Source of the DNA: Bacteroidia bacterium | GTDB lineage: Bacteria > Bacteroidota > Bacteroidia > Flavobacteriales > Flavobacteriaceae | DNA length: 64,000 nt | Reading direction: 5' to 3' | NCBI GenBank assembly: GCA_030431695.1 | Contig: JAUIIU010000003.1 | Location: 13,990-77,989, forward strand | In this document: positions 45,822 through 61,942 of the stretch, piece after piece | Position numbering within the stretch: position 1 is the stretch's first letter | Layout of the letters: each line of letters opens with the position of its first letter | Notes under the pieces: model-generated | What the model saw: the letters and a program-made list of their open reading frames with translations, nothing else | Database searches by the model: none | What the model was told of the DNA's origin: nothing | Position numbers and translations under genes: made by a program

Positions 45822-45838
45822 GCTCCTCCAGCTGGACT
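45822..45838. repeat. island boundary repeat (attL-like), displaced tRNA-Asn 3' end
   Basis: GCTCCTCCAGCTGGACT is identical to 61868-61884. Confidence 0.8.
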
Positions 45839-46195
45839 TCCTCCTACTCCGCCTTTGGCGGATTCGGCGGATAAACTTCTCGTCCAGATTTTTCCCATGC
45901 AAAAAGCCCCTCACTTTCGTGAGAGGCCTGTCGTCGCTTCGCTCCCCCTAATATTGTTTTGTCGAACCACTTTCATGAGGAGTTGATGAGGTTTGCCGCA
46001 ATTTATGACAACATAATGCCAACGTTCTAGTGCTCCTGTTTTATCGCAAGATGTCACCAAGCATCGAGTGGATATTCCTGTATTGTCATTAAAAATGTCA
46101 TCTTATGCCAAGTTGGCACTTAAAATCTCTATTGTTTTCACATTTTTAGTCGATTTCAGGTTTGGCAACATAATTGACACTCTAATTCTTAAAAT

Positions 46196-47167
46196 ATGTT
46201 GAATATGGCAACAAATAAACAAGAATACCTACAAACTGTACTCGAAACGCACCGCATGTCACACGTTGAAGATTTGGTGAATAAATTCAAGTCAAAGAGA
46301 GATGAAGTCAAAGACGCCTTAACCTCACATTACGGTTCACAAATCTACAGTCCATTTGATTCTGGCTCCTTCAAAAAACACACCGCTATAAACACCAAGT
46401 TTGATTTAGACGTTGTAGTACCCGTCAAGCGGGACTCATTTGACACACTCGACAAGATGTTCGATAGCTTCTATGACTTCCTCAGTGATGAATTTGGAGA
46501 GAACGCAACAGTAAGGAAACAAACCGTTTCAATCGGAATCATCTTTGAAGAAGACAGCGATGGTGACGTAATTAGTCTGGATATTGTTCCAGGGCGAGAG
46601 CTAAGTCAAGACCAATATTCCAATGATAAAAAGCTCAATCTGTTCGTGAGCAGCGACTATGGTATTTTTTCCAGTAGCACCTATATCCAAACAAATATTC
46701 AAGCCCAAATTGACCACATCAAAGCCAAAGACAACGAACGAAAAATTATTCGTCTATTGAAAATTTGGAACAATAATGACGGCAAAGAATTTAAGTCCTT
46801 CCTCTTGGAACTAATTACCATAAAAGCCTTTGATACTGAAGATATCTCCGGGAATCTATGGGAAAAACTGCAACAAGTGATGACCTATATAAAAGACAAC
46901 GTAACAAATGATAGCTTCAAATTAATTGACCCAGGAAACAGTAACAATGATTTAATGGACACTTTAACAAGTTGGGGTAGAACCAATCTCTCAAGTCGAA
47001 TGGGAACAATGCTTGATAGAATCGAGAGCAATAGCGACAATATAAAAGGGTATTTCCCGACCAATTCAGATTTTGAAGAAGAAGATAAATCCTCTAGCAG
47101 TGGCTACGGAGTAAAAACCGGAGCAGCGGCATTTTCAACACCCCCGGACAACCAACGATTTGGATAG
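46196..47167 (+). CDS. CD-NTase-like nucleotidyltransferase (CBASS cyclase)
   Basis: It has a Pol-beta NTase signature (GSFKKHTAINTKFDLDVVV), a third acidic residue in SLDIVPG, and an LLKIW helix block. The C-terminal tail ends ...NQRFG. Confidence 0.75.
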   Translation: MLNMATNKQEYLQTVLETHRMSHVEDLVNKFKSKRDEVKDALTSHYGSQIYSPFDSGSFKKHTAINTKFDLDVVVPVKRDSFDTLDKMFDSFYDFLSDEFGENATVRKQTVSIGIIFEEDSDGDVISLDIVPGRELSQDQYSNDKKLNLFVSSDYGIFSSSTYIQTNIQAQIDHIKAKDNERKIIRLLKIWNNNDGKEFKSFLLELITIKAFDTEDISGNLWEKLQQVMTYIKDNVTNDSFKLIDPGNSNNDLMDTLTSWGRTNLSSRMGTMLDRIESNSDNIKGYFPTNSDFEEEDKSSSSGYGVKTGAAAFSTPPDNQRFG

Positions 47168-48820
47168 ATGGGATTTTTGCAGGACGTAACTAAGCTCATC
47201 AGCGATATACCTTTTGTTGAAAAGGCATACGACTTTGAAGAAGAAGAACTCCTAATAAAAGGCAAAGTTAAGCTTTCCATTGAGGAGCTGCCACACCCCT
47301 TAGAATTTGATGTCGAAGTCTTTAAATGCTATCCGCTCAAGAATTATGACTCAGAATCAATAAAGTTCAAAAGCTTAGACCTTATTGAATACAAACACGT
47401 GATGGGAGATGGTTCAATTTGCGTTCATACAGCACATCATACGAATTTAAAATCCAAATTGAATTATGATTTCATCTCTCTAAAGAACTGGATTCTTAAA
47501 TACTATGTGGGCAAAGAAAAAGATGACCACTATGAGCATATTATTGTTGACGAAAAGTTAGTTCATAATCAATACTGGTCCTATCAATTTACCGACATAG
47601 AGCAATCATTTGAAAAAGGAGAGTTCGGTGAGGTAACGATAAGCCCTCTTCTTCCCATTGGAACATTTAGAGGTGCCCGTATTTCCAATCACATCATACA
47701 GAGTTTTATTAGAAATAATGGTGAGAAATTAGATTGTAAATGGAGTCAGCTTTATAAACAGTTTAATATTACCAATTCTGGGTGTTATGTTTTTATAGAG
47801 TCTCCACCTGCAAACCATGGAAAATTCATTTATACAAAATGGTCTGATTTGCAGGACCATCTCCCTCTACAATTTTTAACATTCCTACTCGAATTTCAAA
47901 AGAAGTTCATTAAAGATAGAGGGAAAATCTTTCCTTTATTTATTGGATATAATACCGATGATTCTAATATTCACTGGCAAGTAGCTTTACTAGAACTGGG
48001 GAACTTTCCTGTAATGGGTTATAGAATGCCTAGTGGAAAATGGGAAATGATACTTAAGCATGATATGGAAATTGATTGGGGCTTAACAAGGAATTCTTCA
48101 TTCGATTATTTTTTTGGAAGGGGTTCTTTTTCGAAGCACATTACTGAGAAGAAAATACTTATTATTGGTGTTGGTGCAGTCGGCAGTATGGTCGCAAAGA
48201 CTCTCACAAGATGCGGCTGCAAATTCATAGACATTGCTGACAGTGACATCAAAGAACCTGAGAACATTTGTCGTTCTGAATATCAGTTTAATTTCGGTTT
48301 GGGTGATAAGACTGAAGAACTCAGAATTATACTTGGTACTATCTCACCCTTCGTTGAAACCAACGTTGTCGACAAAGACTATTTTCAAGGGATTATTAAA
48401 CTATTCCACAAAGAGAAGGGAAGCAAATTAAATTTTGAGAAAAGCTTAAATGACTACGACTTAGTCTTTGATTGTACTACTGATAACGACTTGATGTACG
48501 CACTAGACTCTCTGGATTTGAAATGTGCTTTAATAAACCTCTCAATAACCAACTTTGCTAATGAGTTGGTCTGTGCATTCTATCCAAACATATATAATTT
48601 CGTAATGAATCAATTCAATAATGTTCTGGATAATGATACAACCGATTTATATAATCCGACTGGTTGCTGGAGTCCAACCTTCAAAGCTTCTTATAATGAC
48701 ATTGCATTGTTGGTGCACAAGGCTTTAAGTCGAATAAATAGCCTCTATGATTCAGGAGCAAGAAAGAATAATTTTGTGATAGAGGGTTCCGGGTCAGACC
48801 TAAAAGTTATCGAGTTTTGA
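47168..48820 (+). CDS. Cap2-like E2/E1 fusion protein
   Basis: The N-terminal half has an E2-like Cys (GDGSICVH). The C-terminal half is ThiF/E1-like (IIGVGAVGSMVAKTL, DSDIKEPENICRSEY) with a candidate catalytic Cys (PTGCWSPTF). It starts right after the cyclase stop. Confidence 0.8.
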   Translation: MGFLQDVTKLISDIPFVEKAYDFEEEELLIKGKVKLSIEELPHPLEFDVEVFKCYPLKNYDSESIKFKSLDLIEYKHVMGDGSICVHTAHHTNLKSKLNYDFISLKNWILKYYVGKEKDDHYEHIIVDEKLVHNQYWSYQFTDIEQSFEKGEFGEVTISPLLPIGTFRGARISNHIIQSFIRNNGEKLDCKWSQLYKQFNITNSGCYVFIESPPANHGKFIYTKWSDLQDHLPLQFLTFLLEFQKKFIKDRGKIFPLFIGYNTDDSNIHWQVALLELGNFPVMGYRMPSGKWEMILKHDMEIDWGLTRNSSFDYFFGRGSFSKHITEKKILIIGVGAVGSMVAKTLTRCGCKFIDIADSDIKEPENICRSEYQFNFGLGDKTEELRIILGTISPFVETNVVDKDYFQGIIKLFHKEKGSKLNFEKSLNDYDLVFDCTTDNDLMYALDSLDLKCALINLSITNFANELVCAFYPNIYNFVMNQFNNVLDNDTTDLYNPTGCWSPTFKASYNDIALLVHKALSRINSLYDSGARKNNFVIEGSGSDLKVIEF

Positions 48821-49281
48821 GATTCTTCAATAAACATAGAAACGTTGAACTAATAATTAGCCAAGAATTAATTGATGAAATTGGCATCGTTGGTGTTGAA
48901 CATTTCCCAAATGAATTTGGCGGTTTTTTGACGGGTAGGTACTCCGATGATTATAATACCCTGTTCATAAATGATTTCGTTCTTCCGAAAGCATCCAAAG
49001 GAAGTAGGTTTCAGTTCGTGAGACGTTCTAAAGGAATGAAGAAATTTTTCAGAAAATTATTCCAGAGCAAAAAAGAATATTATGTTGGAGAATGGCATAC
49101 ACATCCAAATGGTAGTACCCAATTTAGCAGCACTGATTTAAACGCAATGATGGAAATTGAATCAGCTCCAAGTGTAAAAATTAAGAATCCCGTGCTACTA
49201 ATTCTAAGTGTCACCAACAAAAAACTTGACAACGCCACCTTTTATATATACGACAATAAAAAACTACTACCTTATGAGTAA
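48817..49281 (+). CDS. Cap3-like JAB/JAMM isopeptidase
   Basis: It carries EFGGFL plus an exact HxHx7Sx2D motif (HTHPNGSTQFSSTD). Its TTG start overlaps the Cap2 stop (TTGA). Confidence 0.8.
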   Translation: MRFFNKHRNVELIISQELIDEIGIVGVEHFPNEFGGFLTGRYSDDYNTLFINDFVLPKASKGSRFQFVRRSKGMKKFFRKLFQSKKEYYVGEWHTHPNGSTQFSSTDLNAMMEIESAPSVKIKNPVLLILSVTNKKLDNATFYIYDNKKLLPYE

Positions 49282-50098
49282 AATAGATATAAAACTACTA
49301 TTTGCTGGACTTCAAAAGCAAATGGTCGCCCAATTGAACACGAATAGAGAATTCATTACACATCCGGGTTCAAAAGGTGATTCATTAGAGAATGCATGGA
49401 TTGAATGGCTGAGAACATATTTACCAAACAGATATAACGTTGACAAAGCGATTGTTATTGATTCTGAAGGAAATACAAGTCATCAGATGGATATAGTGAT
49501 TTATGACAATTGGTATACTCCATTTATATTTACGCAAAATGGATTTCATTATATACCTGCCGAAGGAGTATATGCTGTTTTTGAAGTAAAACCAGACATC
49601 AAGGGTAATGTTGGCGATAAAAACTACATTGAATATTCTGCTGAAAAAATTGAAAGTGTTAGGATTCTAAAAAGAAAAGCCGCTGGATTTATAAATGGTG
49701 GAGTCCCACATGGTCCGAGACCCTTAACCAAAATTATTGGTGGTATTCTTTGCAGTACGAATTCATACACTCGAACGAACAACAGTACTATTAAAACACA
49801 CATCCAAAATCAAACACAACTTAAGACTATTGATTTAGGGTGTATAGCTGATTATGGTAGTTTTTATGTCGATTATACTCCAAATAACGAAATAACTAAT
49901 CCAGGTTATAAAGCCTATTTAGATTTTTATAACGCCAGAAAATTCAAGAGCTTAAAGTTTAGCAAAGCAGATAATTCGATGGTTACTTTCTTCTTCCAGC
50001 TAACAAGATATTTACAGCAAGCTATTGGAACAATTCCAGCAATTAACTTGAAGGAATATTTGGATAGTATCGGTGAGAAACTAGATGAAGAAATTTAA
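49274..50098 (+). CDS. NucC-like restriction-endonuclease-fold effector
   Basis: It has HPGSKGDSLENAWIEWLRTYLPNRY and then MD-x30-EVK, the same spacing as the ID-x30-EAK active-site motif reported for NucC. The ATG at 49274 overlaps the Cap3 stop (ATGAGTAA). Confidence 0.65.
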   Translation: MSKIDIKLLFAGLQKQMVAQLNTNREFITHPGSKGDSLENAWIEWLRTYLPNRYNVDKAIVIDSEGNTSHQMDIVIYDNWYTPFIFTQNGFHYIPAEGVYAVFEVKPDIKGNVGDKNYIEYSAEKIESVRILKRKAAGFINGGVPHGPRPLTKIIGGILCSTNSYTRTNNSTIKTHIQNQTQLKTIDLGCIADYGSFYVDYTPNNEITNPGYKAYLDFYNARKFKSLKFSKADNSMVTFFFQLTRYLQQAIGTIPAINLKEYLDSIGEKLDEEI

Positions 50099-50148
50099 TA
50101 TTATTATTCCAATTACTTCTTTGTAAATTAGAGCATTAGACAAACAAT

Positions 50149-50469
50149 ATGGAAAAACAGATACGCTCTTTATTAATATCAAAACTTGGAGAATATCATA
50201 GTAATTTTACTGTTCCTTATTATAATGATGAGATTCTAAAGGTATTAGCCTTCAACCCAATAGAATTCGAGTGGAAAGACGACCTTGAGAATATTGGCGG
50301 TAATGTTTCATTCATATGCCTTGTAAAGGGAAAAATAAAAGGAATCACTTCCAGAAAAAGGACATACTCATTCTCCTTTTCAGGCGTCTCAGCTATAATG
50401 GAAGGAACAAAAGTTACAGACCTTAATTTGGAAAATATGAATATTACATCATATAATAGACAGGATTAA
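50149..50469 (+). CDS. hypothetical protein (106 aa)
   Basis: An ORF 50 nt downstream of the NucC-like gene. No family was recognised. Confidence 0.4.
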   Translation: MEKQIRSLLISKLGEYHSNFTVPYYNDEILKVLAFNPIEFEWKDDLENIGGNVSFICLVKGKIKGITSRKRTYSFSFSGVSAIMEGTKVTDLNLENMNITSYNRQD

Positions 50470-50484
50470 GTTCGTGATGACATT

Positions 50485-50955
50485 CTATCTATTTTCGATT
50501 AGATTTGACTTAATCCAATCAGCGTAGTACCTTAAAAAAGGTAGTAACTCGTTGGATTCAAATTTTGCCACTTGGACCACCTGACCATTACTATTTCTAG
50601 TAAACACAATCTCATCGACTAGAAAGTCATCCGTATTTGAAATTATTTCAAAGCTCCCGTGGGCTATTGAGTTACGTAAATCACGTATCAAATCTCTGAA
50701 ATTCCTGTAGCGCTTATTGATAAATGAATTAACCAAACCCATTTGCTTAAGAAGTTCCGTGGTAATGATTGGATTAGGAATATGACTAAAAACCGTCTCC
50801 TTAGGAATCACAATAATACCCAATAAGCAATTCAATAGGAGCGTATAATTATACTGTTGCTCGAAAGGGTATTTATGAAGAATTGATTCGTATTGTGCTA
50901 TTAGCTTCATTGTTCTGTCAATGAAATCATGCTCTATATCTTTATAATTTCCCAT
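50485..50955 (-). CDS. HEPN-motif protein (Abi-like)
   Basis: A 156-aa all-helical-looking protein with an Rx4H motif in RDLRNSIAHGSF, as in the RNxxAH of AbiD/F-type HEPN domains. Confidence 0.55.
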   Translation of the reverse strand: MGNYKDIEHDFIDRTMKLIAQYESILHKYPFEQQYNYTLLLNCLLGIIVIPKETVFSHIPNPIITTELLKQMGLVNSFINKRYRNFRDLIRDLRNSIAHGSFEIISNTDDFLVDEIVFTRNSNGQVVQVAKFESNELLPFLRYYADWIKSNLIENR

Positions 50956-51047
50956 TTATATTGCTTTATCTTAAAACTTAAATAACCATTTCAAAGATAA
51001 AGCAATTAGTTTACGGAATAATAAACACAAAGTGATTCCCTCATCTA

Positions 51048-51203
51048 TTAATTCGAAGCCATGTGCCGCTGCCAGCTCTTCACATCATACATGGACTCGA
51101 TAATTCGTTTTGCTGCCGATGGTGATGTAGCCTCACACGAAACTGAAATATAATGTCCCCCGGATTTGAGCCAAATAGCTCCTTTGTAAGTTTGTGTTGT
51201 CAT
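51048..51203 (-). CDS. possible small ORF (51 aa) coupled to the resolvase
   Basis: The ATG lies 2 nt after the resolvase stop. It encodes MTTQTYKGAIWLKSGGHYISVSCEATSPSAAKRIIESMYDVKSWQRHMASN. It falls below the ORF-track cutoff and is unverified. Confidence 0.3.
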   Translation of the reverse strand: MTTQTYKGAIWLKSGGHYISVSCEATSPSAAKRIIESMYDVKSWQRHMASN

Positions 51204-51205
51204 AA

Positions 51206-51808
51206 TTATAATGTTTGCTCTTTTAAAGCTCTTTTAACCCTCTGGGCTGTTCCTAGACTCACACCACCCAATGCAGCTGCACGCCTCAAGGATTCACCAT
51301 TTTCAAGCTCGGTGGCTACTTTCTTGTACTTCTTCAAGAATTCTTCAGTAGACATACGGGAGCCGTATAAGCGACCATTATAAACCCCTTTGGCTTTGGC
51401 TATCTCGATGCCTTGACGCTGCCTCTCAAGCATATTATTACGCTCCATCTCACTCACGTTACCCAGTACCGACACAATCATCTTGAATATTGGGTTCTGT
51501 TTTCCGTCAACCATAGAAAACATACCTATATTTTCCACATAAAGCTTGACGCTGTTTTCGGTTAGGAATTCGCAGACGGTTAGGATGTCTAGTATGTTTC
51601 TTCCAATACGGTCAATTGATAAGACATGTACTTCATCGATTCTACCTTGTTTAATCCTGTCAATCAATTTCTTGCCCTGAGGTCTTTCGAAAAACGATAT
51701 TGCACCACTAATCCTATCTACATACACCTTATCGAATTCAGACTCATTCTTCTCCTGTCTGGAAGTATTTTGTTCTACGGTTGATACCCTAACGTATTTG
51801 ACTTTCAT
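51206..51808 (-). CDS. small serine recombinase (resolvase/invertase family)
   Basis: It starts MKVKYVRVSTVEQNTSRQ with the catalytic Ser motif and has a C-terminal HTH (GGVSLGTAQRV). The ATG at 51808 is preferred. Confidence 0.85.
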   Translation of the reverse strand: MKVKYVRVSTVEQNTSRQEKNESEFDKVYVDRISGAISFFERPQGKKLIDRIKQGRIDEVHVLSIDRIGRNILDILTVCEFLTENSVKLYVENIGMFSMVDGKQNPIFKMIVSVLGNVSEMERNNMLERQRQGIEIAKAKGVYNGRLYGSRMSTEEFLKKYKKVATELENGESLRRAAALGGVSLGTAQRVKRALKEQTL

Positions 51809-51834
51809 AATTTCATTTCTATACATCAAATATA

Positions 51835-51866
51835 GTGTATTATATTAGGGTGGCAAAATAATACAC
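51835..51866. promoter_or_regulatory. res-like recombinase binding site
   Basis: GTGTATTAT-n14-ATAATACAC is a 9-bp inverted repeat 27 nt upstream of the resolvase start. Related half-sites occur at 51924-51938 (ATACAC-ttc-GTGTAT) and 52003-52010. Confidence 0.5.
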
Positions 51867-52235
51867 ATAAAAACCAGGTATTTAGCTGAAATTACTGTGC
51901 CCAAATCTTGTATGCTCCAATTAATACACTTCGTGTATATACAGTCCCTATTTCACTCTCCGAAATTTGCTGGAAAAATTTTGAACACCTCCGACCTTTT
52001 GTATATACACATCGCATTTCGGTCAATTGAAAGGGCGGATACGGGAACGAGATTTTTCAATTGTGTTTATAGATAGCTTTTGAAGACAGGTCGGACGGTC
52101 ATAGCCGTTCGCATTCAAAAACACCAAGTCAACCGAAGTATAGACTGTGACTCACGTGCTTGGGTAGTGTAAAGAGGTACCTTAAAAGCAGCCTTTTCGT
52201 TGATTCTTGCATATTTATAGACAAACAATTTTATC

Positions 52236-52397
52236 ATGGCAAAACTACCAACAACTGAAAACACCGAAATCTTTATAATGAGAATGACCCCAGCCTTGAA
52301 ACAGAAGCTGAATGAACTAGCTAAGAGAAGTAAATATGGGGGTAATGCATCTTCTGCAGTAAGGGTTTTGATTGAGTCAGCGTATCTAGATTTTTGA
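52236..52397 (+). CDS. ribbon-helix-helix (CopG/MobC-like) small protein, 53 aa
   Basis: It encodes MAKLPTTENTEIFIMRMTPALKQKLNELAKRSKYGGNASSAVRVLIESAYLDF, with a beta-strand then two helices, the typical RHH pattern. It is preferred over the antisense 96-aa ORF. Confidence 0.55.
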   Translation: MAKLPTTENTEIFIMRMTPALKQKLNELAKRSKYGGNASSAVRVLIESAYLDF

Positions 52398-52854
52398 GCT
52401 ACCAAAAAAAACTCAAATTTATAATTCTCATTATTAGATGGTTACAAATAATTTCGAATATTTTTTCGACTTTTTTAATGTATAGACATATTTATATATA
52501 ACAACCGTAAACAGTTTTATGATGGTCAGCATCACGACCTAGGTCAAATGAAGGTGGTGTACATATTCGGATTGCAAAGGGCAACATTAAGCGGGCGGAG
52601 GCTCAGGCACTTAAGTTGGTAATCTGGTGTGTGGTTGATAGGAACTTAGCCGATTCAATCTGAAAGGGTACCGCCAAGGTATTGGACCCGAATGCCCCAC
52701 GTAGTATGTCGGTTTGGTTCTGCGAAGAACGAGTTCTAGGTACTACGGTCAGAACAGTTCCTATATAAAAATGTAGGAGAGATTTTTTGGAACTAAGTAC
52801 GATGGATGATAGGACCACTTAACGGTGGATGTATGGAAGTAGACATAAATCATC

Positions 52855-52890
52855 TCTATACCTTTTTAGGGGGTATGGGGGTGATTTTTT
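52855..52890 (+). terminator. possible intrinsic terminator ending a non-coding transcript
   Basis: The stem UCUAUACC / GGUAUGGG includes 2 G-U pairs and has a 9-nt loop. T6 occurs at 52885-52890 after a short spacer. Confidence 0.35.
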
Positions 52891-53102
52891 GTTTCATTGG
52901 ACTCCTGGAACCTCCTTCCGTTGGATAGGAAGAGAGACATATAAATTATTACCTAGGGAACATAAAAACTACAATAGATGGGTATAGAAAGTATATTAGA
53001 ATCAACTAACTGAAATACCAAGAACTTATAGGTATTTCGACTGGTCTTTACTGCTTTTGTCTATAATTTCTTCTGTTATAATATTGATTTTATATTCATT
53101 AG

Positions 53103-53849
53103 TCATATAACTTGTATCCACTTATTTGAACTTATAACCGGAGTATATTCTACAAATTCACCTCTCTGAGATTCAAAGTCTTCATCATCAACACTGAAAC
53201 ATTCGACATTAACCTTCAATTTATCACATACGGACCTAATTTGCCTACTCAAAGATTCTTTATCCATTCTATTGAGCCAATAATTCCAATACTTTTTATT
53301 AGCGACCAACAATAATTTAGGTGATTCATGATTTGCCATGAAGCTCCATTCAAACTTTTTAAATCCATCGTGGTGAACATCATGTCTATCTAAAGCATCA
53401 TGGTTGCAACGGATATAGTAGTAATACATCAATAATTCAATAACACCATAAATTGGACGGTTTGATTTGGAACTATTGCTGTATTTCAATTCACAAATTA
53501 CAGGTACATCGTCTGATGTCATTCCAATAAGGTCTAGACATAGTCGTCTAGAACTTTTGTTTAGAACTACTGGAAGTTCGAAATCCAACCATTGAACTTC
53601 TGTTTTCGTTCTTCCATGGTCAATCACTGCTTTCTGGCAATTAAAAATTGCTCTTTGGAGTGCTTTCTCTGTTATGTCTTTTATTATAATAGACGGAGTC
53701 CCTGGATTGGTTGGATGTTCAATTGACTCATTATCTTCATTTTCAAGTGTTGCTTTTAACTTTCCTAAATCATTCCAATCAGAGTTATCAATATAATCAA
53801 TTATGTGTCCTTTAAATTGTTCATTTGTAATTCTCGAAATCATAATCAA
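53103..53849 (-). CDS. PD-(D/E)xK nuclease-fold protein, uncharacterised
   Basis: CLDLIGMTSDDVPVICELKY gives D-x12-ExK preceded by a beta-strand. It lies 32 nt downstream of hsdR on the same strand. Confidence 0.5.
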   Translation of the reverse strand: MIMISRITNEQFKGHIIDYIDNSDWNDLGKLKATLENEDNESIEHPTNPGTPSIIIKDITEKALQRAIFNCQKAVIDHGRTKTEVQWLDFELPVVLNKSSRRLCLDLIGMTSDDVPVICELKYSNSSKSNRPIYGVIELLMYYYYIRCNHDALDRHDVHHDGFKKFEWSFMANHESPKLLLVANKKYWNYWLNRMDKESLSRQIRSVCDKLKVNVECFSVDDEDFESQRGEFVEYTPVISSNKWIQVI

Positions 53850-53881
53850 CCTGTTACGAATAAATTCTCATAATCCTTTTA

Positions 53882-56236
53882 CTAACTCGCCTCACCACCG
53901 TAGAGGTGCTCTTGGAATCCTATGAAAGTCTCTCTTATGGATTTGATATCACCAAGCTCGTGTTTGGCGTCAGCTAAGGCTTTGTATTTAAGTTCTAATA
54001 GGTCTGGAAGTTTCGCATCATCCAACTCGTCCACACCTTCTTTAACGTATTGCTCCAACACGAAGTTCAGGAACTCTTGTTGCTTTGGGTTGTAATCACC
54101 CAATTTGATTTTAGCCTTATCGGCTCGGTCTAATCTTGGAACCATGCTTTTATGATAAGCTACGTAGTTAAGCACATCGTATAAGTCGCTTTCCTCTCCA
54201 TGTACCAGCTTACGTAAATCTTCAAGCTGTGCATGGGTATATCCTTTCTCATTCAGTTCTTCCAATAGCTTCTTTCTGGTAGACGGTAGACTCCAAAGCT
54301 TTCTAAGCTCATCTTCACTTCGGAATAGTGCTGGTAAATCTCCAAACAATTGGTCCAAGAACTCTTGAGCAGATATCGGTGTACCATGCGGACTCCAGAA
54401 GGAAGTCTTTATCATGCTGTCGATTTCTCTGACCTTGTTATCGGACAACTTAACCTTTATCATCTTCTTGGGTGGTTCATCACAAAAACAGGGGTCATTG
54501 TCACAAATCTCACAGTAGGTTGGCTCATGTATCTCATTTGGCTTGCCGTCCCCCCTGGTGTATTCTCTTGGTGGTTCTGGTTCAATCGGTTCACCATCCC
54601 ACTCTGGGTCTTTGAAATGGTCATGGGCATTGACGAAATCGAAAACGGTGAAATACTCCTTGCCGTCAAATAGACGTGTTCCACGTCCCACAATTTGTTT
54701 AAACTCCACCATCGACTTCACAGGTCGTAGGAGCACTATGTTCCTCAATTCAGGGGCATCAACTCCAGTGCTCAGTTTCCTCGATGTTGTCAAGATAGTG
54801 GGGATACTCTTTTCGTTATCCTGAAAATCCCGCAGGTGCTTTTCTCCAATCTTTCCGTCATCTGCCGTTACCCTATGGCAGTAATTCACGTTATTACTGT
54901 CTGAGTATTGATTGATGAGGTCCCGAATCGCAGCCGCATGAACTTGTGTCGCACAGAACACCAAAGTCTTCTGATTCTGGTTAATGATATTCAAGAATGT
55001 TTTGACCCTAAACTCTTCCCGTGCTTTGATTTCGATAATACGATTGAAATCTTCCTCAGTATAGGTGCGTCCTACCTCAACCTCGCCTGTTTCGACATCA
55101 TCATCTTCGGTATATTCATACTCATCAATTGTTGTTGTGATTTCCTTGACCTTGAAGGGTGTAAGGAATCCATCATTGATACCTTCCTTGAGTGCATAGA
55201 TGTAAACCGGGTCACCAAAATACTTGTAGGTATCACCATTAACGTCCCGTTTTGGTGTAGCGGTCAGACCGAGTTGAACCGCTGGACTGAAATACTCCAT
55301 GATTGCTCTCCAAGAGCTTTCATCATTAGCACCACCACGGTGACACTCATCAATAATTATAAAGTCAAAGAAGTCTTTAGGGTATTCTCCAAAGTTGGGA
55401 GAATCATCTGGACCAGACATGAAGGTCTGGAAAATGGTAAAGAAAATATTGCCATTTTTTGGAACCTTGCCTCGCTTTCTGATTTCATCTGGTGCGATAC
55501 GGACCAGAGCGTCCTCTTCAAAGGCACTAAAGGAATTGAATGCTTGGTCGGCAAGGATGTTTCTATCGGCTAAGAACAGTATTCTGGGGCTACGCTGCCC
55601 ATCTCGTCTTAGGTTCCACTTGGCATGGAACAACTTCCATGAAATTTGGAAAGCGATAGCCGTCTTACCCGTACCAGTAGCTAAAGTCAGCAGGATTCGG
55701 TCTTTTTTATCAGCAACAGCCTCTAGCACCTTGGTAATGGCATTGTCTTGGTAGTAACGAGCCTGCCAAGTACCCCCACGGTCCTCAAATGGTACCGAAA
55801 ATAACCGTTCTTTCCAATCAGCAATTTCTTTTTTATACTCTTCAATCGGTGGTGGATAAGTCTTTTCCCAAAGTTCATCGGGTGTAGGGTATCGGGCAAC
55901 ATCACCCTCAACACCCTCATCCATATCAACCTCATAAATCTGTAACCCATTAGTGGCATAGGTGTATCTGATATTCAATCGGTCAGCATAATCCTTAGCC
56001 TGCCCTAGACCATCGGTGTAATAAGCATCACGCTTTTTGGCTTCTATTACCGCAAGCTTGCGATTCTTGTAAATGAGCACATAATCGGCTCTGAGTTGTG
56101 AGTAGTTCCTAACCCCAGGCTTCTCTTTGTTTGTAATTGGAAACTCCTTATACACCCTAGAACCTTCCACATCACCCCAACCTGCTTCTCGAAGAGCTGG
56201 TTCAATTAGATGATATTGGGTTTGGGATTCGTTCAT
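53882..56236 (-). CDS. hsdR: type I restriction enzyme R subunit
   Basis: It has the N-terminal HsdR nuclease motif (ADYVLIY...VIEAKK), helicase motif I (ATGTGKT), a DECH box and a C-terminal EcoEI-type region. Confidence 0.92.
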   Translation of the reverse strand: MNESQTQYHLIEPALREAGWGDVEGSRVYKEFPITNKEKPGVRNYSQLRADYVLIYKNRKLAVIEAKKRDAYYTDGLGQAKDYADRLNIRYTYATNGLQIYEVDMDEGVEGDVARYPTPDELWEKTYPPPIEEYKKEIADWKERLFSVPFEDRGGTWQARYYQDNAITKVLEAVADKKDRILLTLATGTGKTAIAFQISWKLFHAKWNLRRDGQRSPRILFLADRNILADQAFNSFSAFEEDALVRIAPDEIRKRGKVPKNGNIFFTIFQTFMSGPDDSPNFGEYPKDFFDFIIIDECHRGGANDESSWRAIMEYFSPAVQLGLTATPKRDVNGDTYKYFGDPVYIYALKEGINDGFLTPFKVKEITTTIDEYEYTEDDDVETGEVEVGRTYTEEDFNRIIEIKAREEFRVKTFLNIINQNQKTLVFCATQVHAAAIRDLINQYSDSNNVNYCHRVTADDGKIGEKHLRDFQDNEKSIPTILTTSRKLSTGVDAPELRNIVLLRPVKSMVEFKQIVGRGTRLFDGKEYFTVFDFVNAHDHFKDPEWDGEPIEPEPPREYTRGDGKPNEIHEPTYCEICDNDPCFCDEPPKKMIKVKLSDNKVREIDSMIKTSFWSPHGTPISAQEFLDQLFGDLPALFRSEDELRKLWSLPSTRKKLLEELNEKGYTHAQLEDLRKLVHGEESDLYDVLNYVAYHKSMVPRLDRADKAKIKLGDYNPKQQEFLNFVLEQYVKEGVDELDDAKLPDLLELKYKALADAKHELGDIKSIRETFIGFQEHLYGGEAS

Positions 56237-57060
56237 TTAGTGGATATTAAATAGTTTTTGACCAGAGTCCAAATCTCATTCCTCACCTCATTCGACATCG
56301 CCTGGGTATAGTATGGTACGCTCCCGAACGGATATCCAAATAAAGTTCCCGTATATCCAAAAGCTCTGCGATTGGTGGTTTCGTCAAATACCTCAATTCG
56401 TTTTCGCTGCTTCCAATCATCACCTAAGCGATGAGGTTTCCCTATCATCAAAATCCATGGTGGGGTGATTTTACGGATGTACTCTTCAAAAAGTGGTCTA
56501 CTAAGGTCTATCGCATTATCGGGTAGGCTATTTACATCTGGGCTTCTAAAAAAGCACGCATTGGTGTAATTTAGGTTTTCAATTTCCTCCCCAAAATGCC
56601 AATCAATGTAGGTTCGGCAATGATTGATAAATGACCAATCCCTTTCCTTATACTTTGGTGGGTGAGTGGACTGTGCGTTGATGTCATTTCCACCCCAGTT
56701 TATACCAAAGAAAACCCCCGCACCTTTTTGTATAGGGGTATCGCAGATGGCATAATTCCAGTTTTTTCCTTCAAGCCTTAATCCATTACTGGGGTCTTCA
56801 AAAACAGTAGCGGTCTTGTCAAGTAAATCGTAAAAGATAATGTCCTCATCATTTAGGTGGTCCAATTTCAACTCAAGGGACTTGACTTCGCTTCTTGATA
56901 TGCCCCGCTCCTTCAATAGCCTAGAAACATCATCGCCAATATCTTTTAAAGCAAGGTCATAGGTGTTATTGTGGGTTGTTCCAATATGCCCAAGTAAAAC
57001 TGGAATTTCCTTGCCATTCTTTAGCTTGACATTATACGTGTAGCGGGTTAATTGACTCAC
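56233..57060 (-). CDS. uncharacterised protein embedded between hsdS and hsdR, with weak UDG-superfamily-like motif order
   Basis: Its GTG start overlaps the hsdS stop (GTGA), and its stop overlaps the hsdR start (ATGA). The motifs VFFGINWGG, YTNACFFRSP, WILMIGK and GSVPYYT occur in the order seen in MUG/TDG-type glycosylases. This is a by-eye comparison only. Confidence 0.6.
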   Translation of the reverse strand: MSQLTRYTYNVKLKNGKEIPVLLGHIGTTHNNTYDLALKDIGDDVSRLLKERGISRSEVKSLELKLDHLNDEDIIFYDLLDKTATVFEDPSNGLRLEGKNWNYAICDTPIQKGAGVFFGINWGGNDINAQSTHPPKYKERDWSFINHCRTYIDWHFGEEIENLNYTNACFFRSPDVNSLPDNAIDLSRPLFEEYIRKITPPWILMIGKPHRLGDDWKQRKRIEVFDETTNRRAFGYTGTLFGYPFGSVPYYTQAMSNEVRNEIWTLVKNYLISTK

Positions 57061-58259
57061 ACCTCAACCTCCTTTCCTGTTAACTCACCTGCCAAAGCTT
57101 TTTGTAGGATGGATTTTTTGAGTTCTCGTATATTTTCAATCCTTTTTTTATTAAAATCTATAGAATTATGAGTCAACTCATGCATCTTATGATGCAGTTC
57201 TACGAACTTAGTTTGCTCTTGTATAGTTGGACATGGAACCTTTATTGACTTAAGTATTTTAACTCCTGGCACATTTGGTTGCGCTGCTCCACCAGCCGCC
57301 CTAAAAATCAAATCTTGAAATATTTTACTCCTAATCCAAATAATAAGAAAATCATTCAACATTTGATTTGGTTTAGTTGACAGCTTAAGTAATGCTTGAT
57401 TAATTATTCCAGCTGGTGCATTCGGTGGCACCTCTGAAATGCGTCCAAGAGTAACCCCAGAACAACTCATCAGCAAATCCCCAGACTTAACTTTAAACCT
57501 CTGCATTTCTTGAAATTTTTCCTCATCTATAAAATATCTCAAGGCATCATAATCATTATGAATAGCTTGCTTCTGTTCATATACCGCATATCCCGATTCA
57601 ACAAACATTGATTTTTTTAAGCTTCCACCAAATGGTCCACGTGTGAAGTCGCATATCTCACCCCAATTGACTTCATGCCAGTTGGCACTTTGAATAGTTT
57701 TGAAGGTCCAATTCTCATACAACTCCATTGCGTTTTCAATATTACGCTCAATATTGGCTTTCGCTTTGTCAATAGCTTCAAAGGCTTGGTCCAAAACGCC
57801 TACAATTTGCTCTTGTTCAGCAACTGGGGGAATTGGAATTTCGAAGTCAAATATATCCGCCTTGCTGAATCCATTTTGCGCAGACCTATCCGAAACATTC
57901 GCCAACGGTTTTTGAAAAAGAGGTGATGTCAAGTAGTATAGGTAATACCTTCTAACCAGTAATTCCTCATTAGGTGTGACTTTCATCAAAGCAACATTAT
58001 ATGCGCCCGATTTGCCCGTACATATTTTCCCGACTGACGCACCATACCTTCCTAACAAAATGTCATTGTGTTGACAGACCCTGTTTTTTTCAGATATAGG
58101 AATGTAAGCTGCCTTATTATCACTTTTAAAATCCCGAATTTGTAACAATCGAACATAACCTTCTTGCGGCTCAGACTTGAAGGTAGATTTCGGTGGTTGA
58201 CTTCCGCCTTGCATGTCAGTCACCTCCCCCAATTTACTATTTATCCAACCTTCTCTCAT
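57057..58259 (-). CDS. hsdS: type I R-M specificity subunit
   Basis: It has two target-recognition halves separated by conserved coiled-coil spacers (PPVAEQEQIV, TIQEQTKFV), at 400 aa. Confidence 0.9.
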   Translation of the reverse strand: MREGWINSKLGEVTDMQGGSQPPKSTFKSEPQEGYVRLLQIRDFKSDNKAAYIPISEKNRVCQHNDILLGRYGASVGKICTGKSGAYNVALMKVTPNEELLVRRYYLYYLTSPLFQKPLANVSDRSAQNGFSKADIFDFEIPIPPVAEQEQIVGVLDQAFEAIDKAKANIERNIENAMELYENWTFKTIQSANWHEVNWGEICDFTRGPFGGSLKKSMFVESGYAVYEQKQAIHNDYDALRYFIDEEKFQEMQRFKVKSGDLLMSCSGVTLGRISEVPPNAPAGIINQALLKLSTKPNQMLNDFLIIWIRSKIFQDLIFRAAGGAAQPNVPGVKILKSIKVPCPTIQEQTKFVELHHKMHELTHNSIDFNKKRIENIRELKKSILQKALAGELTGKEVEV

Positions 58260-59710
58260 ATCAATTCTTTAATTGATTCGAGAATTGAGTTGGTCTCTGA
58301 GTTTAATCTCTCCATTTCAGACAATATCTCTTCAGGGACTCTTAACGGTGCTTCCTCTGGCATGTTCGGATTCTTAACGCTAAGGTCAATGGTCTTAACA
58401 TCCACATTTGACACTTTCAAGTTCCAAGAACGTTCGGTTTCGGGTTTGTCTTTATAGCTATCCAAAAACTCTTTAAGGTCCTCATCGTTTAATGGACTGG
58501 TTTTACCTAAGCTGCGTTCTGGATTCAATTGATAATACCAGATATTCTTAGTAGGCTCCCCTTTCTGGAAAAATAGCACTATTGTCTTTACCCCGGTGCT
58601 GGTAAATGCTCCCTGAGGTAGCTCAAGAACTGTAAACAGGTCACAGCTTTCAATTAAGTATTCTCTCAAGGCAATAGCAGCATTGTCTGTATTGCTTAGG
58701 AAAGTGTTCTTGATTACGATAGCAGCACGTCCACCCGCTTTGAGGTTCTTAATGAAGTGCTGCAAGAATAGGAAAGCGGTTTCACCTGTCTTGATATCAA
58801 AATTCTGCTGTACTTCTTTACGTTCCTTACCACCAAAGGGTGGATTGGCAAGAATTACATGGTAACGGTTTTTCTCTTGGACATCCCTAATGTTTTCAGC
58901 TAGCGTATTGGTGTGGATGATATTTGGAGCCTCGATACCGTGCAATATCATATTCATGATACCAATCACATACGCTAAGTTCTTTTTTTCCTTACCAAAG
59001 AGAGTATTCTCCTGCAAGGTGATGAGGTTGTCGGTGGTCTTTTCCATACGCTCGTACATGTAATCATACGCCTCGCAGAGAAAGCCACAAGAACCCGCTG
59101 CACCGTCATAAACCTTCTCACCTATCTTTGGGTCGATTACGTCTATCATCGCTCTAATAAGCGGTCTTGGCGTATAATACTGCCCTCCATTGCGCCCAGC
59201 ATTACCCATATTCTTAATCTTGGACTCATACAGGTCAGAAAGCTCGTGCTTATCCTTGGATGAACGGAATGGTAAAGCGTCTGCATACTCCAGTATGTCT
59301 CTTAGGATATACCCGCTTTGAATCTTGTTCTTAAGCTCAGAGAAGATTTCACCAATCTTGTATTCGATGGTTTGCGGGTTTTCTGCCGTTTGCTTGAATC
59401 CTGACAGGTATGGAAAAAGCTTCTGGTCTACGAATTCGATGAGGTCTGGACCTGTCATCGCTTTGTGGTGGTCAAGTTGGTTGTCTGTACCCTTGGGCAT
59501 CGCCCACACTTCCCATCGGTATTCGGGGGCGATGATATGATGGTATTCCAGACCCTTGAGTTCGGCTTCATCTCGTTTATCTTGCTCAAGGTCGTCCAGA
59601 TATTTTAGGAACAACACCCACGAGGTCTGACCTATATAGTCTAACTCGCTATCGGCACCAGCATCTTTGTATAAGAGGTCATCTATGTTTTTAAATGTGT
59701 TTTCGAACAT
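58256..59710 (-). CDS. hsdM: type I R-M N6-adenine DNA methyltransferase subunit
   Basis: It has an N-terminal HsdM domain, motif I (DGAAGSCGFL) and motif IV (NPPFGG). Confidence 0.92.
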   Translation of the reverse strand: MFENTFKNIDDLLYKDAGADSELDYIGQTSWVLFLKYLDDLEQDKRDEAELKGLEYHHIIAPEYRWEVWAMPKGTDNQLDHHKAMTGPDLIEFVDQKLFPYLSGFKQTAENPQTIEYKIGEIFSELKNKIQSGYILRDILEYADALPFRSSKDKHELSDLYESKIKNMGNAGRNGGQYYTPRPLIRAMIDVIDPKIGEKVYDGAAGSCGFLCEAYDYMYERMEKTTDNLITLQENTLFGKEKKNLAYVIGIMNMILHGIEAPNIIHTNTLAENIRDVQEKNRYHVILANPPFGGKERKEVQQNFDIKTGETAFLFLQHFIKNLKAGGRAAIVIKNTFLSNTDNAAIALREYLIESCDLFTVLELPQGAFTSTGVKTIVLFFQKGEPTKNIWYYQLNPERSLGKTSPLNDEDLKEFLDSYKDKPETERSWNLKVSNVDVKTIDLSVKNPNMPEEAPLRVPEEILSEMERLNSETNSILESIKELI

Positions 59711-59739
59711 CTATTCAATATCGTATTGGTTCAATCCTG

Positions 59740-59756
59740 CAAATAACAAATTGAAG
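59740..59756. repeat. 17-nt direct repeat, copy 1 (CAAATAACAAATTGAAG)
   Basis: Identical to 59961-59977. It lies 30 nt upstream of the hsdM start. Confidence 0.7.
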
Positions 59757-59960
59757 CTATTAATCAAATTTTAAGTGAGCGGGGAGTAACGATATAAAGA
59801 TATAATAAAGCAGGAAAATTCCCCGGTTTTTGGTGTTTAGATAAAATTTTTTGAAAAAAGTTGGGAAAAAACTTGTATTTCGGTGCCCTTGTGTAGTATA
59901 ATTGCTCAAACAAGACTTAGGAGCCACTCTTTGGCAATCTTGAAATAACATACTTCAGCC

Positions 59961-59977
59961 CAAATAACAAATTGAAG
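59961..59977. repeat. 17-nt direct repeat, copy 2 (CAAATAACAAATTGAAG)
   Basis: Identical to 59740-59756. Confidence 0.7.
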
Positions 59978-60227
59978 ATTGGGGCAAAATTTTATGACTA
60001 ATTAGCACCCCGCTAAAAGTCAATTCTTATTTAAACACAGTTTAAATTTTTCAGCCTGGAAAGCGGTCACGTTTTCGAGTGATTTGCACCTGGCATTTTG
60101 GTGTTCAGTTGAGCACCCTACAACTCAATGTATACTACAAATACTTGAGTTCCTGTCGACAGACGGGAAACAATAACACACCTCATCACTCCCAGAAAAA
60201 ATCGGAGGAACAGAGTGATAAGCGAAA

Positions 60228-60359
60228 ATGCTAAGTATTACAAAATGTAAAATGATTTTAAATCGAAATGGAATAAAATACACTAACGAAGAGGTGGAGC
60301 AAATTAGGCTCTTCCTTTATAACATCGCTGAAATTCAGCAAAAACAAAATATTATATAA
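60228..60359 (+). CDS. possible small ORF (43 aa) directly upstream of the integrase
   Basis: It encodes MLSITKCKMILNRNGIKYTNEEVEQIRLFLYNIAEIQQKQNII, and its stop lies 2 nt before the integrase ATG. It is unverified. Confidence 0.25.
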   Translation: MLSITKCKMILNRNGIKYTNEEVEQIRLFLYNIAEIQQKQNII

Positions 60360-60361
60360 TC

Positions 60362-61903
60362 ATGAAAACTATTTTATACACCAGGGTTAGCACTGATGAA
60401 CAAGCTAACAAAGGACATGGTAGGGACTACCAAAAAGAAGTCCTAAGAAGGTACTGCCAAGTAAATAACTATGAAGTGATTGCAGAATTCGAAGAAGACC
60501 ACTCAGCAAAAAATTTTAATCGTCCTGAATGGAAAAAACTTGAGCTATTTGTAAAAGCCAACAAAAAATCGATAGACAAGGTCATATTTACGAAATGGGA
60601 CAGGTTTTCAAGAGACATATACAATGCTCTTGACAAAATAAAATCCTTTCAAAAATGGGGAATTGAATTAAATGCAGCTGAACAGACTTTGGACCTGTCC
60701 AATCCAGACAATAAACTCATGTTATCGGTTTATCTAACGGTGCCGGAGGTAGAGAATGATAAAATCTCCCAGAGAACAAGAAGCGGGATGTATAAAGCTG
60801 CGAAGGATGGAGCTTGGATTGGTCGAGTTCCATATGGATATGAACGTCATCATTTTGGCAAGTTTGCATCATTGAAACCCAACGAAGAATCTAAATTAGT
60901 GCAGGATGCTTTCTATGAAGTATCTCTGGGCTTACTACCATGTGAAGAGATAAGACGGAAATTCGAGCAAAGGGGTTATAGCGGGGTTAAACAGTCTTTT
61001 TTAAACCTCTTGCGAAATAAGGTATACCTTGGTATGACTAAGGTTCCCAAATATGATAACGATGAGGCGTTTTGGATTGATGGTTTGCATAATGCAATCA
61101 TTGATGTGCCTACCTTCAATAAGGTCCAAGCTATACTCGAAGGAAAAAATAGGGCTGCTAAACCTCCATCTATAATCAACGAAGCAATGCCCTTAAGAGG
61201 TTTTCTTGAGTGTGAATACTGTAAGGGTAATTTAACGGGCAGTATTTCAAAAGGTAATGGGGGGCAGTATGGGTATTATCACTGCCGAAGAAATTGTAAG
61301 AATCGCATTCCCACAACTTTGGTCCATGAGATGTTCGATGAATCGATTCTAAGCGATTTCATCGTAAATGATAATGTATTAGAACTATACAAAGAAGTTC
61401 TATTGGATATTCAAAAAACCAAACTAGGGAGTAAGTCCAAAACTGAGAACAACTCAAAGAAAATGATTGACGAACTTTCCAAAAAAATTGAGAGTGCTGA
61501 AGACAAATACATCAATGGGGAACTAAGCCAGGATGTGTTTAAAAGAATCATAAGTAGATATGAAAAAGAAAGAATGTCCTTGAAGGCTGATTACACAGAA
61601 ATTAAGGAATCCAAAGGTCTTTCAGTCAAAGCCATAGAAAAGGCTGTGGACGGGCTTAAGAACATCCCTAAACTCTATAAAAACGGTTCGTATGACACAA
61701 AGGTTCAACTACTTGGTTTGATAATCCCCAAAAAACTGATTATTTCAAAAAATGGATGTCGAACCAAGGAAAAGAATGTGGTTGTGGAGCTTCTCACTAG
61801 GGTTAATAAGGTCTCCCAGAGGGCGGGCACAAAAAAAGCCATCATTTCTGACGGCTTGTCTAATATGGCTCCTCCAGCTGGACTCGAACCAGCGACACCC
61901 TGA
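60362..61903 (+). CDS. large serine recombinase (island integrase candidate)
   Basis: It has an N-terminal resolvase domain (YTRVSTDEQ), a recombinase domain, a zinc ribbon (CEYCKGNLTG...YYHCRRNC) and a coiled-coil region. The last 12 codons are tRNA-Asn sequence. Confidence 0.88.
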   Translation: MKTILYTRVSTDEQANKGHGRDYQKEVLRRYCQVNNYEVIAEFEEDHSAKNFNRPEWKKLELFVKANKKSIDKVIFTKWDRFSRDIYNALDKIKSFQKWGIELNAAEQTLDLSNPDNKLMLSVYLTVPEVENDKISQRTRSGMYKAAKDGAWIGRVPYGYERHHFGKFASLKPNEESKLVQDAFYEVSLGLLPCEEIRRKFEQRGYSGVKQSFLNLLRNKVYLGMTKVPKYDNDEAFWIDGLHNAIIDVPTFNKVQAILEGKNRAAKPPSIINEAMPLRGFLECEYCKGNLTGSISKGNGGQYGYYHCRRNCKNRIPTTLVHEMFDESILSDFIVNDNVLELYKEVLLDIQKTKLGSKSKTENNSKKMIDELSKKIESAEDKYINGELSQDVFKRIISRYEKERMSLKADYTEIKESKGLSVKAIEKAVDGLKNIPKLYKNGSYDTKVQLLGLIIPKKLIISKNGCRTKEKNVVVELLTRVNKVSQRAGTKKAIISDGLSNMAPPAGLEPATP

Positions 61904-61942
61904 TTAACAGTCAGGTGCTCTAACCAACTGAGCTATGGAGGA
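61866..61942 (-). tRNA. tRNA-Asn (anticodon GTT), CCA encoded
   Basis: The hand-folded cloverleaf is TCCTCCA/TGGAGGA acceptor, GCTC/GAGC D-stem, CCTGA-CTGTTAA-TCAGG anticodon arm and GCTGG-TTCGAGT-CCAGC T-arm. Confidence 0.92.
61868..61884. repeat. island boundary repeat (attR-like) inside tRNA-Asn
   Basis: GCTCCTCCAGCTGGACT is identical to 45822-45838. It covers tRNA positions from the T-loop to the first C of the CCA. Confidence 0.8.

Follow-up and report, generated by a model that had tools for sequence, protein, structure and literature searches.

The 64,000-nucleotide (nt) stretch of contig JAUIIU010000003.1 analysed here, referred to as the window, contains a type I restriction-modification (R-M) operon with an additional gene, termed X, between its specificity and restriction genes. 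The four genes lie on the minus strand in the order hsdM, hsdS, X, and hsdR, and are joined by 4-nt overlaps. The hsdM stop and hsdS start share ATGA, the hsdS stop and X start share GTGA, and the X stop and hsdR start share ATGA. The gene order and the three overlaps are read off the sequence just as the original prediction had claimed. By Pfam and PADLOC, the host operon is an intact type I R-M system with HsdM, an HsdS containing two target-recognition domains, and HsdR. HsdM and HsdR are full length by the PADLOC models MTase_I (1.7e-153) and REase_I (2.5e-125), respectively, and the C-terminal domain of HsdR is EcoEI-like (Pfam EcoEI_R_C, 1.8e-29).

Gene X starts at GTG, stops at TGA, and has a Shine-Dalgarno-like AAGGAGG 8 nt 5' of the GTG. 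It is a real gene and not a chance open reading frame (ORF), because its homologues reach E=7.8e-78 and are aligned from residue 1. As a single query, X finds nothing in Pfam, NCBIfam, PADLOC, PHROGs, or the PDB sequences (phmmer). In a collection of 5.8 billion proteins, its homologues fall into 14 clusters (90% identity). An exhaustive hidden Markov model (HMM) search of 1.84 billion yields 264 representatives at 50% identity, of which 57 fall below 1e-30. A second profile search gains almost no further proteins, and tblastn of phage and plasmid collections gives no match to X. The distribution of the family is extremely sparse and patchy. The family was previously unannotated, and none of Pfam, NCBIfam, and PADLOC offers a model for it.

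Fold and putative active site of X

The AlphaFold2 (AF2) model of X, built on a 14-sequence alignment, has a mean predicted local distance difference test score (pLDDT) of 81.6 and a predicted template modelling score (pTM) of 0.74. In a Foldseek search of the PDB, 49 of the top 50 matches to the model are enzymes of the uracil-DNA glycosylase (UDG) superfamily. The top match is the S. tokodaii family-4 UDG 4zby (E=6.3e-5), and further matches include human TDG, UdgX, SMUG1, MUG, and the Thermus and Thermotoga UDGs. Matches in the viral library BFVD are headed by phage UDGs. The sequence profiles lead to the same superfamily. The 140-member profile of the X family (A2) matches the solved family-4 UDG 4zbx with E=1.4e-6, and 34 of its 140 relatives individually match Pfam UDG (PF03167), the best at 4.5e-6. 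Local hhalign of the X family to a family-4 multiple sequence alignment (MSA) gives E=8.9e-4, and in the global alignment the C-terminal two thirds align convincingly. PDB alignments supplied the family-4 sequences, and the T. thermophilus query is 100% identical to 1ui0. Since Foldseek, the A2 match to 4zbx, and the Pfam matches of the relatives agree, the predicted UDG-superfamily fold of X is well supported. The original prediction had arrived at this fold as a guess and had named structure prediction as a check on it; the model is UDG-like.

X consists of an accessory N-terminal domain and a UDG-like core. Residues 69-110, comprising a helix and the invariant WN[YF]AICDTPI segment, belong to the core and are shared with homologues of ~210 amino acids (aa). 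A separate AF2 model of the N-terminal domain has a pLDDT of 69, and a Foldseek PDB search with it gives no significant match (best E=0.31). The earlier description of an N-terminal extension of no recognisable family thus holds in this search, whereas its length is ~68 aa and not ~100 aa. The domain is present in the window protein, in P0002-P0005, and in P0015/L009. It is not the adaptor behind the embedding of X in R-M operons, because it is missing from the embedded copies L001, L002, and L026.

The four motifs on which the guess had been based are located at residues 116-124 (VFFGINWGG), 165-174 (YTNACFFRSP), 202-208 (WILMIGK), and 246-252 (GSVPYYT). The proposed equivalences of the last three to UDG motifs are recovered in the alignments, and that of GINWGG follows from the AF2 strand and an alignment to the antiviral glycosylase Brig1. 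I-N-W-G-G is taken as the putative motif A because it stands directly after the AF2 strand 116-119, which is the site of motif A in every UDG. The family consensus of this motif is G-[ILF]-N-W-G, and N121 occupies the position of the catalytic Asn in GINPG of MUG/TDG, GMNPG of SMUG1, and GLNPG of Brig1. This position suggests that N121 is its catalytic equivalent. When the X family is compared with Brig1, hhalign pairs a single segment, LI-G-x-N-W-G with LVLGLNPG. In the alignments to family-4 UDGs, N167 coincides with the base-reading Asn of YITN, R172 and P174 with KCRPP, F144 with the base-stacking Phe of GRPF, and ILMIGK with IIVPLGA. The [LV]-P-H-P of the X family aligns with FHPA, which is motif B.

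The residues of these segments are nearly invariant. Among the 140 relatives, those kept in motif A are G119 (138), N121 (135), W122 (130), and G123 (130). Those of the second segment are N167 (138), C169 (128), F171 (136), and R172 (137), and those of motif B are P249 (138), H250 (132), and P251 (128). D183 (131), P200 (139), and W264 (130) are also kept. This conservation pattern looks like that of an enzyme. The only conserved cysteines are C106 and C169, and neither corresponds in the alignments to an Fe-S cysteine in 1ui0 or 4zbx. By its motifs, the X family is a hybrid that combines a putative Asn-type motif A with family-4-type N..R.P and HP motifs and lacks the Fe-S cysteine quartet.

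Family-4 UDG (UdgA; 4zbx/4zby, 1ui0, 1vk2) is the best profile and fold match of X. The two share x-T-N-x4-R-x-P, the beta3 G, and the beta4 H-P of motif B, the His of which is missing in the window copy. In contrast, X lacks the four cysteines of the 4Fe-4S cluster, its motif A is G-I-N-W-G instead of G-E-[AG]-P-G, and it has the invariant WN[YF]AICDTPI segment and a beta-hairpin insertion as extra elements. The absent Fe-S cysteines and the different motif A rule X out as a family-4 UDG proper. Family 2/3 UDGs (MUG/TDG with GINPG, SMUG1 with GMNPG) share the Asn-type motif A and are among the top fold matches. Motif B of X is not the NPSGLS of MUG/TDG, and hhalign of the X-family alignment A1 to E. 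coli MUG is not significant (E=0.56). X is therefore not a MUG/TDG either.

Genomic context of the family

The neighbourhoods of X homologues were scanned with A1 in some 30 loci of metagenomic or reference-genome origin, the majority from Flavobacteriaceae and other Bacteroidota. X lies directly 3' of hsdS in the window and in L001, L002-4, L020, L023, L025, and L026, usually with a 4-nt overlap. In the orthologous operons, HsdM is 78-81% and HsdR 75-86% identical to the window proteins, whereas X is just 43-50% identical. By these identities X evolves much faster than its operon partners, and such divergence is typical of arms-race components. Type I hsd genes occur in about 10 of the ~23 informative loci, far above the estimate for a random gene, which is below a few per cent. 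Other type I systems are found near X in three further settings. In L010/L011 (HsdM 24% identical) X lies upstream, next to an integrase; in L017 (HsdM 47% identical) it lies ~6 kb downstream, within a cluster of genes on one strand; and in L030 it lies near another type I system.

Additional defence genes are found beside X homologues. L005 has a type III R-M system (Mod/Res), and L012 has Shedu directly upstream of X. WYL regulators of the BrxR/CapW type lie within 1-2 genes of X in L006, L013, L021, L027, L028, and L030. They are accompanied by AAA-Peptidase_M41 proteins in L006 and L013, by PIF1/AAA_30 helicases in L027, L028, and L030, and by a 1031-aa N6_Mtase fusion protein in L027 and L028. 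The enrichment of homologues near R-M and defence genes, which the original prediction had made a test of its claim, is therefore a strong association, and the idea of X as a defence partner is supported by these neighbourhoods.

A PAD_porph gene (agmatine/peptidyl-arginine deiminase-like) adjoins X in L006, L017, and L036; in L030 the two are ~7 kb apart. L017 and L036 share a conserved cassette of a ~420-aa protein, PAD, and X, which is about 70% identical, while L006 contains a divergent X-PAD pair with a PAD of about 30% identity. The gap between hsdS and hsdR also holds other cargo after X, namely an Mrr_cat endonuclease and a trypsin-like protease in L026 (8633-10385) and a trypsin-like protease in L002 (10642-11670). 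The gap thus appears to be an insertion hotspot. A distant subfamily (e.g. P0126, 368 aa) has an N-terminal domain of ~150-200 aa without assignment fused to an X-like core. In L021 (6064-9468) and in L022, the fused gene has Nmad3 and DUF2779 genes as neighbours, and the element around them carries an integrase and a WYL regulator. This arrangement resembles the NMAD+UDG system that a figure legend of the DefensePredictor paper lists as predicted and unvalidated (PMC13092281).

In the window, X is located on a low-GC island at a tRNA-Asn gene (Table 1). The 17-nt direct repeat that brackets the island, GCTCCTCCAGCTGGACT, is the 3' end of tRNA-Asn (45822-45838 and 61868-61884). A large serine recombinase (60362-61903) overlaps the 3' half of tRNA-Asn, and the guanine-cytosine (GC) content falls from about 0.46 to 0.35-0.41 inside the island. 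The remaining cargo includes a complete type II cyclic-oligonucleotide-based antiphage signalling system (CBASS). Two small ORFs and a small serine resolvase between CBASS and the R-M operon (50149-51829) have no PADLOC match. A sister island in L002 shares the recombinase and the hsd operon with that of the window but has DarT/Macro cargo in place of CBASS. X thus rides on a mobile defence island of modular make-up.

Upstream of hsdM, the 17-mer CTTCAATTTGTTATTTG occurs in two identical copies 221 nt apart, where 0.04 matches are expected by chance. The 17-mer is absent from the other loci searched, and the pair could be a candidate regulatory element of the operon (operator or promoter). A sigma-70 and terminator scan of the operon gives counts equal to those of shuffles. 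A sigma-70 null is expected if the host is a member of the Bacteroidota with non-sigma-70 promoters. On the same strand, a 248-aa ORF (53103-53849, minus strand) starts 33 nt past the hsdR stop. Searches of Pfam, NCBIfam, PADLOC, and the PDB give no match to it, and by eye it shows a D...E-L-K stretch (VICELKY) like that of PD-(D/E)xK nucleases. L001 and L002 have no conserved counterpart behind hsdR, and the ORF could be a further member of the operon.

Table 1. Coordinates of X, its putative motifs, the R-M operon, and the island in the window, with the PAD_porph genes of other loci
Feature	Coordinates	Strand	Basis or remark
hsdM, type I R-M methyltransferase, 484 aa	58256..59710	-	Pfam N6_Mtase 4.9e-61 and HsdM_N
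hsdS, specificity subunit, 400 aa, two target-recognition halves	57057..58259	-	Pfam Methylase_S x2, PADLOC Specificity_I
Gene X, 275 aa, candidate antiviral DNA glycosylase of UDG-superfamily fold	56233..57060	-	
X residues 1-68, accessory N-terminal domain (beta-hairpin, helix, strand)	56857..57060	-	poorly conserved
X residues 69-275, conserved UDG-like core common to all family members	56236..56856	-	
Beta1 strand and putative motif A, VFFG-INWGG, residues 116-124	56689..56715	-	AF2 strand 116-119, conservation
LNYTNACFFRSP, segment with N167, R172, and P174	56539..56574	-	HMM alignments to 4zbx, hhalign to family-4 MSA, conservation
Motif B position, SVPYYT (GSVPYYT = 246-252)	56305..56322	-	alignments, conservation
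hsdR, restriction/translocase subunit, 784 aa	53882..56236	-	Pfam ResIII 2.1e-38, Helicase_C, HSDR_N_2
Two exact copies of 17-mer CTTCAATTTGTTATTTG upstream of hsdM	59740-59756, 59961-59977 (region 59740..59977)	-	
Low-GC genomic island with operon, ~16 kb, at tRNA-Asn	45822..61942	.	
Type II CBASS, complete	46196-50098	+	strong PADLOC matches
CBASS cyclase	46196-47167	+	
CBASS E1/E2, Cap2-like	47168-48820	+	
CBASS JAB, Cap3-like	48817-49281	+	
CBASS NucC-type endonuclease effector	49208-50098	+	
Small ORF between CBASS and R-M, 106 aa	50149-50469	+	
Small ORF between CBASS and R-M, 156 aa	50485-50955	-	
Small serine resolvase between CBASS and R-M, 207 aa	51206-51829	-	
PAD_porph gene, L006	5408-6457		
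PAD_porph gene, L017	8955-9803		
PAD_porph gene, L036	2150-3004		
PAD_porph gene, L030	3-596		

A candidate antiviral glycosylase within the operon

The best explanation, to which a probability of about 55% is given, is that X is an autonomous Brig-like antiviral DNA glycosylase inside a type I R-M operon, where it would form a complementary layer of defence that is independent of the Hsd complex. X would scan DNA and flip a non-canonical base into a UDG-type pocket formed by the stacking F144, the base-reading N167, the water-positioning N121, and motif B, which has His in the family and Tyr in this copy. Cleavage of the N-glycosidic bond would leave abasic sites that block the replication of the invading genome. 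Host DNA would be spared because the target base is proposed to be absent from it, and X would be made whenever the Hsd subunits are, as the 4-nt overlaps are proposed to couple translation. One operon could thereby cover unmodified DNA through type I restriction and, in addition, phages with modified bases that evade restriction. The logic of a back-up layer is demonstrated experimentally for TgvAB in the type I system of V. cholerae (10.1101/2024.04.04.588119) and is proposed for Brig1 next to BREX or R-M genes (PMC11078745).

Brig1 is an antiviral alpha-glucosyl-5-hydroxymethylcytosine (5hmC) DNA glycosylase (PMC11078745). Brig1 and X both have the UDG-superfamily fold with the S. tokodaii family-4 UDG 4ZBY as the closest solved structure (PMC11078745), and both are small single proteins of defence islands near R-M/BREX genes. 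Their motif A reads G-L-N-P-G in the former and G-I-N-W-G in the latter. The sequences are not significantly similar (hhalign with A2, E=0.11 over 15 columns; blastp, E=3.2), with the Brig1 sequence taken from the supplement of the paper and possibly containing character-recognition errors. The base is read by Glu147 in Brig1, which acts on a cytosine derivative (PMC11078745), and by Asn167 in X, kept in 138 of the 140 relatives. Moreover, Brig1 is not reported as embedded in a type I operon, unlike X. The insignificant similarity and the differing base-reading residue rule X out as a member of the Brig1 family. Because an Asn reads the base where Brig1 has a Glu, we infer that the target of X is more likely of the uracil, 5-substituted-uracil, or hypoxanthine/xanthine type than a cytosine derivative.

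Brig2 is a UDG-like defence against thymidine-modified phages from Vibrio integron cassettes (10.1101/2025.10.29.685425). Compared by description only, it resembles X in its UDG-like fold, its Bacteroidota homologues, and its location in mobile AT-rich regions, and a uracil-type target would suit the base-reading Asn of X. Brig3-BapA consists of a 5hmC glycosylase and a deglucosylating helper (10.64898/2026.02.25.707755). The fold of Brig3 is described as AAG-like/UDG-superfamily with D127 as key residue, and its catalytic Asn in the N50-P51-S52 loop is analogous to N121 of X, again by description only. Brig3 is paired in an operon with its accessory enzyme. X pairs recurrently with PAD_porph at other loci, and by analogy one may speculate that PAD_porph is a helper enzyme akin to BapA. 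Unlike Brig3-BapA, the window X has no helper enzyme.

Several observations weigh against this explanation. The Foldseek TM-scores are modest at about 0.35-0.58, X alone stays below the Pfam and PDB sequence thresholds, and hhalign does not reliably align motif A to family-4 UDG. No X homologue is found in PADLOC. The seven embedded cases represent one orthologous operon family and not independent events, so the number of independent hsd associations is about three or four. A minority of the homologues have housekeeping or repair flanks. X follows Asparaginase_2 directly in L009 (8921-13869), where it precedes PolA, and in L029 (542-2424), where the genes overlap by 4 nt. Its neighbour is MetRS in L016, and in L035 (2296-7785) it is divergent from the gene of an IMS (Y-family polymerase) and a 1073-aa gene in an imuB/dnaE2-like cassette. 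Furthermore, the window copy has D183A, H250Y, and P251Y at three near-invariant positions, and its P-Y-Y in place of the family consensus P-H-P lacks the motif-B His. These substitutions suggest that the window allele may be weakened or retargeted. Tyr at position 250 occurs in 5 of the 140 members, with four cases besides the window copy. MUG/TDG enzymes are active without the motif-B His, and the window protein may therefore be active as well.

The same substitutions form the basis of a different proposal, that X is a catalytically dead UDG-fold binder of DNA, of a modified base, or of a protein, e.g. a reader or an anti-restriction decoy. UDGs are well-known targets of the DNA-mimic inhibitors Ugi, p56, and SAUGI, as type I R-M enzymes are of the DNA mimics Ocr and ArdA. 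However, N121, N167, F171, R172, and H250 are near-invariant family-wide in an active-site-like pattern, the example of MUG/TDG applies here too, and Tyr can still donate a hydrogen bond. A dead binder is therefore considered unlikely.

About equally improbable is an ordinary repair glycosylase for uracil, hypoxanthine, or mismatches that hitch-hikes in mobile DNA. The UDG fold, the uracil-type base-reading Asn, and the few homologues beside PolA (L009) or imuB/dnaE2-like genes (L035) fit such a role. On the other hand, the extreme sparseness and patchiness of the family, the location of its members mostly on islands beside defence genes, and the rapid divergence of X between otherwise conserved operons do not, and X falls below the Pfam UDG threshold and has no NCBIfam model.

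The position of X recalls PrrC in EcoprrI, the analogy drawn in the original prediction. PrrC, DarTG2, and X are all accessory genes at the hsdS-hsdR junction. X could accordingly be a guarded effector or sensor on the Hsd complex that is switched on by a phage anti-restriction protein, as it is translationally coupled at both junctions and remains directly after hsdS in seven orthologous operons. Nevertheless, homologues exist without hsd genes, beside Shedu, WYL, type III R-M, or housekeeping genes, whereas PrrC is found nearly always in type I R-M systems. X contains neither an NTPase nor a regulatory domain, other genes separate it from hsdR in L002 and L026, it diverges far faster than HsdM and HsdR, unlike a tight co-evolving complex, and its optional N-terminal domain does not track embedding. 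The analogy thus stands for the operon position, and its looser back-up idea fits, while a guarded effector or sensor is improbable. X is ruled out as a PrrC homologue, since it shares neither the ABC-ATPase-like regulatory nor the anticodon-nuclease domain.

A direct wiring of X to the type I enzyme, either as a trap or sensor for DNA-mimic anti-restriction proteins or as a roadblock that remains attached to abasic sites of its own making and triggers HsdR cleavage of modified phage DNA, is a long shot; if true, it would be a new cooperation of base excision with ATP-driven restriction. Least probable is a step in a DNA-modification pathway, in which X would install a modification by base exchange or a glycosylase step, because the link to Nmad3 is limited to the distant fused subfamily and the window operon has no such partner, its methyltransferase being a standard HsdM, even though a PAD_porph enzyme recurs beside X.

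Accessory defences in type I R-M operons are known. TgvAB inside a V. cholerae type I R-M operon acts on hypermodified phage DNA independently of the host R-M (10.1101/2024.04.04.588119), and DarTG2 is embedded at the hsdS-hsdR junction of a type I R-M system (PMC12255303). The guilt-by-embedding survey describes defence genes embedded in hsd operons and mentions no glycosylase in its main text (10.1101/2024.01.29.577857). TgvAB, DarTG2, and PrrC are a GmrSD-like nuclease, an ADP-ribosyltransferase toxin-antitoxin, and an anticodon nuclease, respectively, whereas X has a glycosylase fold. Among the reports found, none describes a UDG-fold gene inside a type I R-M system. The earlier claim of a new combination is thus plausible for the UDG fold, and the embedding itself follows a known principle and not a new one.

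To our knowledge, antiviral DNA glycosylases came to light only in 2024-2026, and every family added has turned out to target another base modification of phages. Phages of marine and soil Bacteroidota carry unusual bases, and the X family is concentrated in marine and soil Bacteroidota. The recurrent PAD_porph neighbour hints at a helper-enzyme logic like that of Brig3-BapA. If X is active, its family would be a fourth UDG-fold defence lineage, as far as the comparison of Brig2 and Brig3 by description allows, and X would be a potential reagent to map the modified base. The operon would then be a clean case of R-M and a modification-dependent back-up in a single transcription unit.

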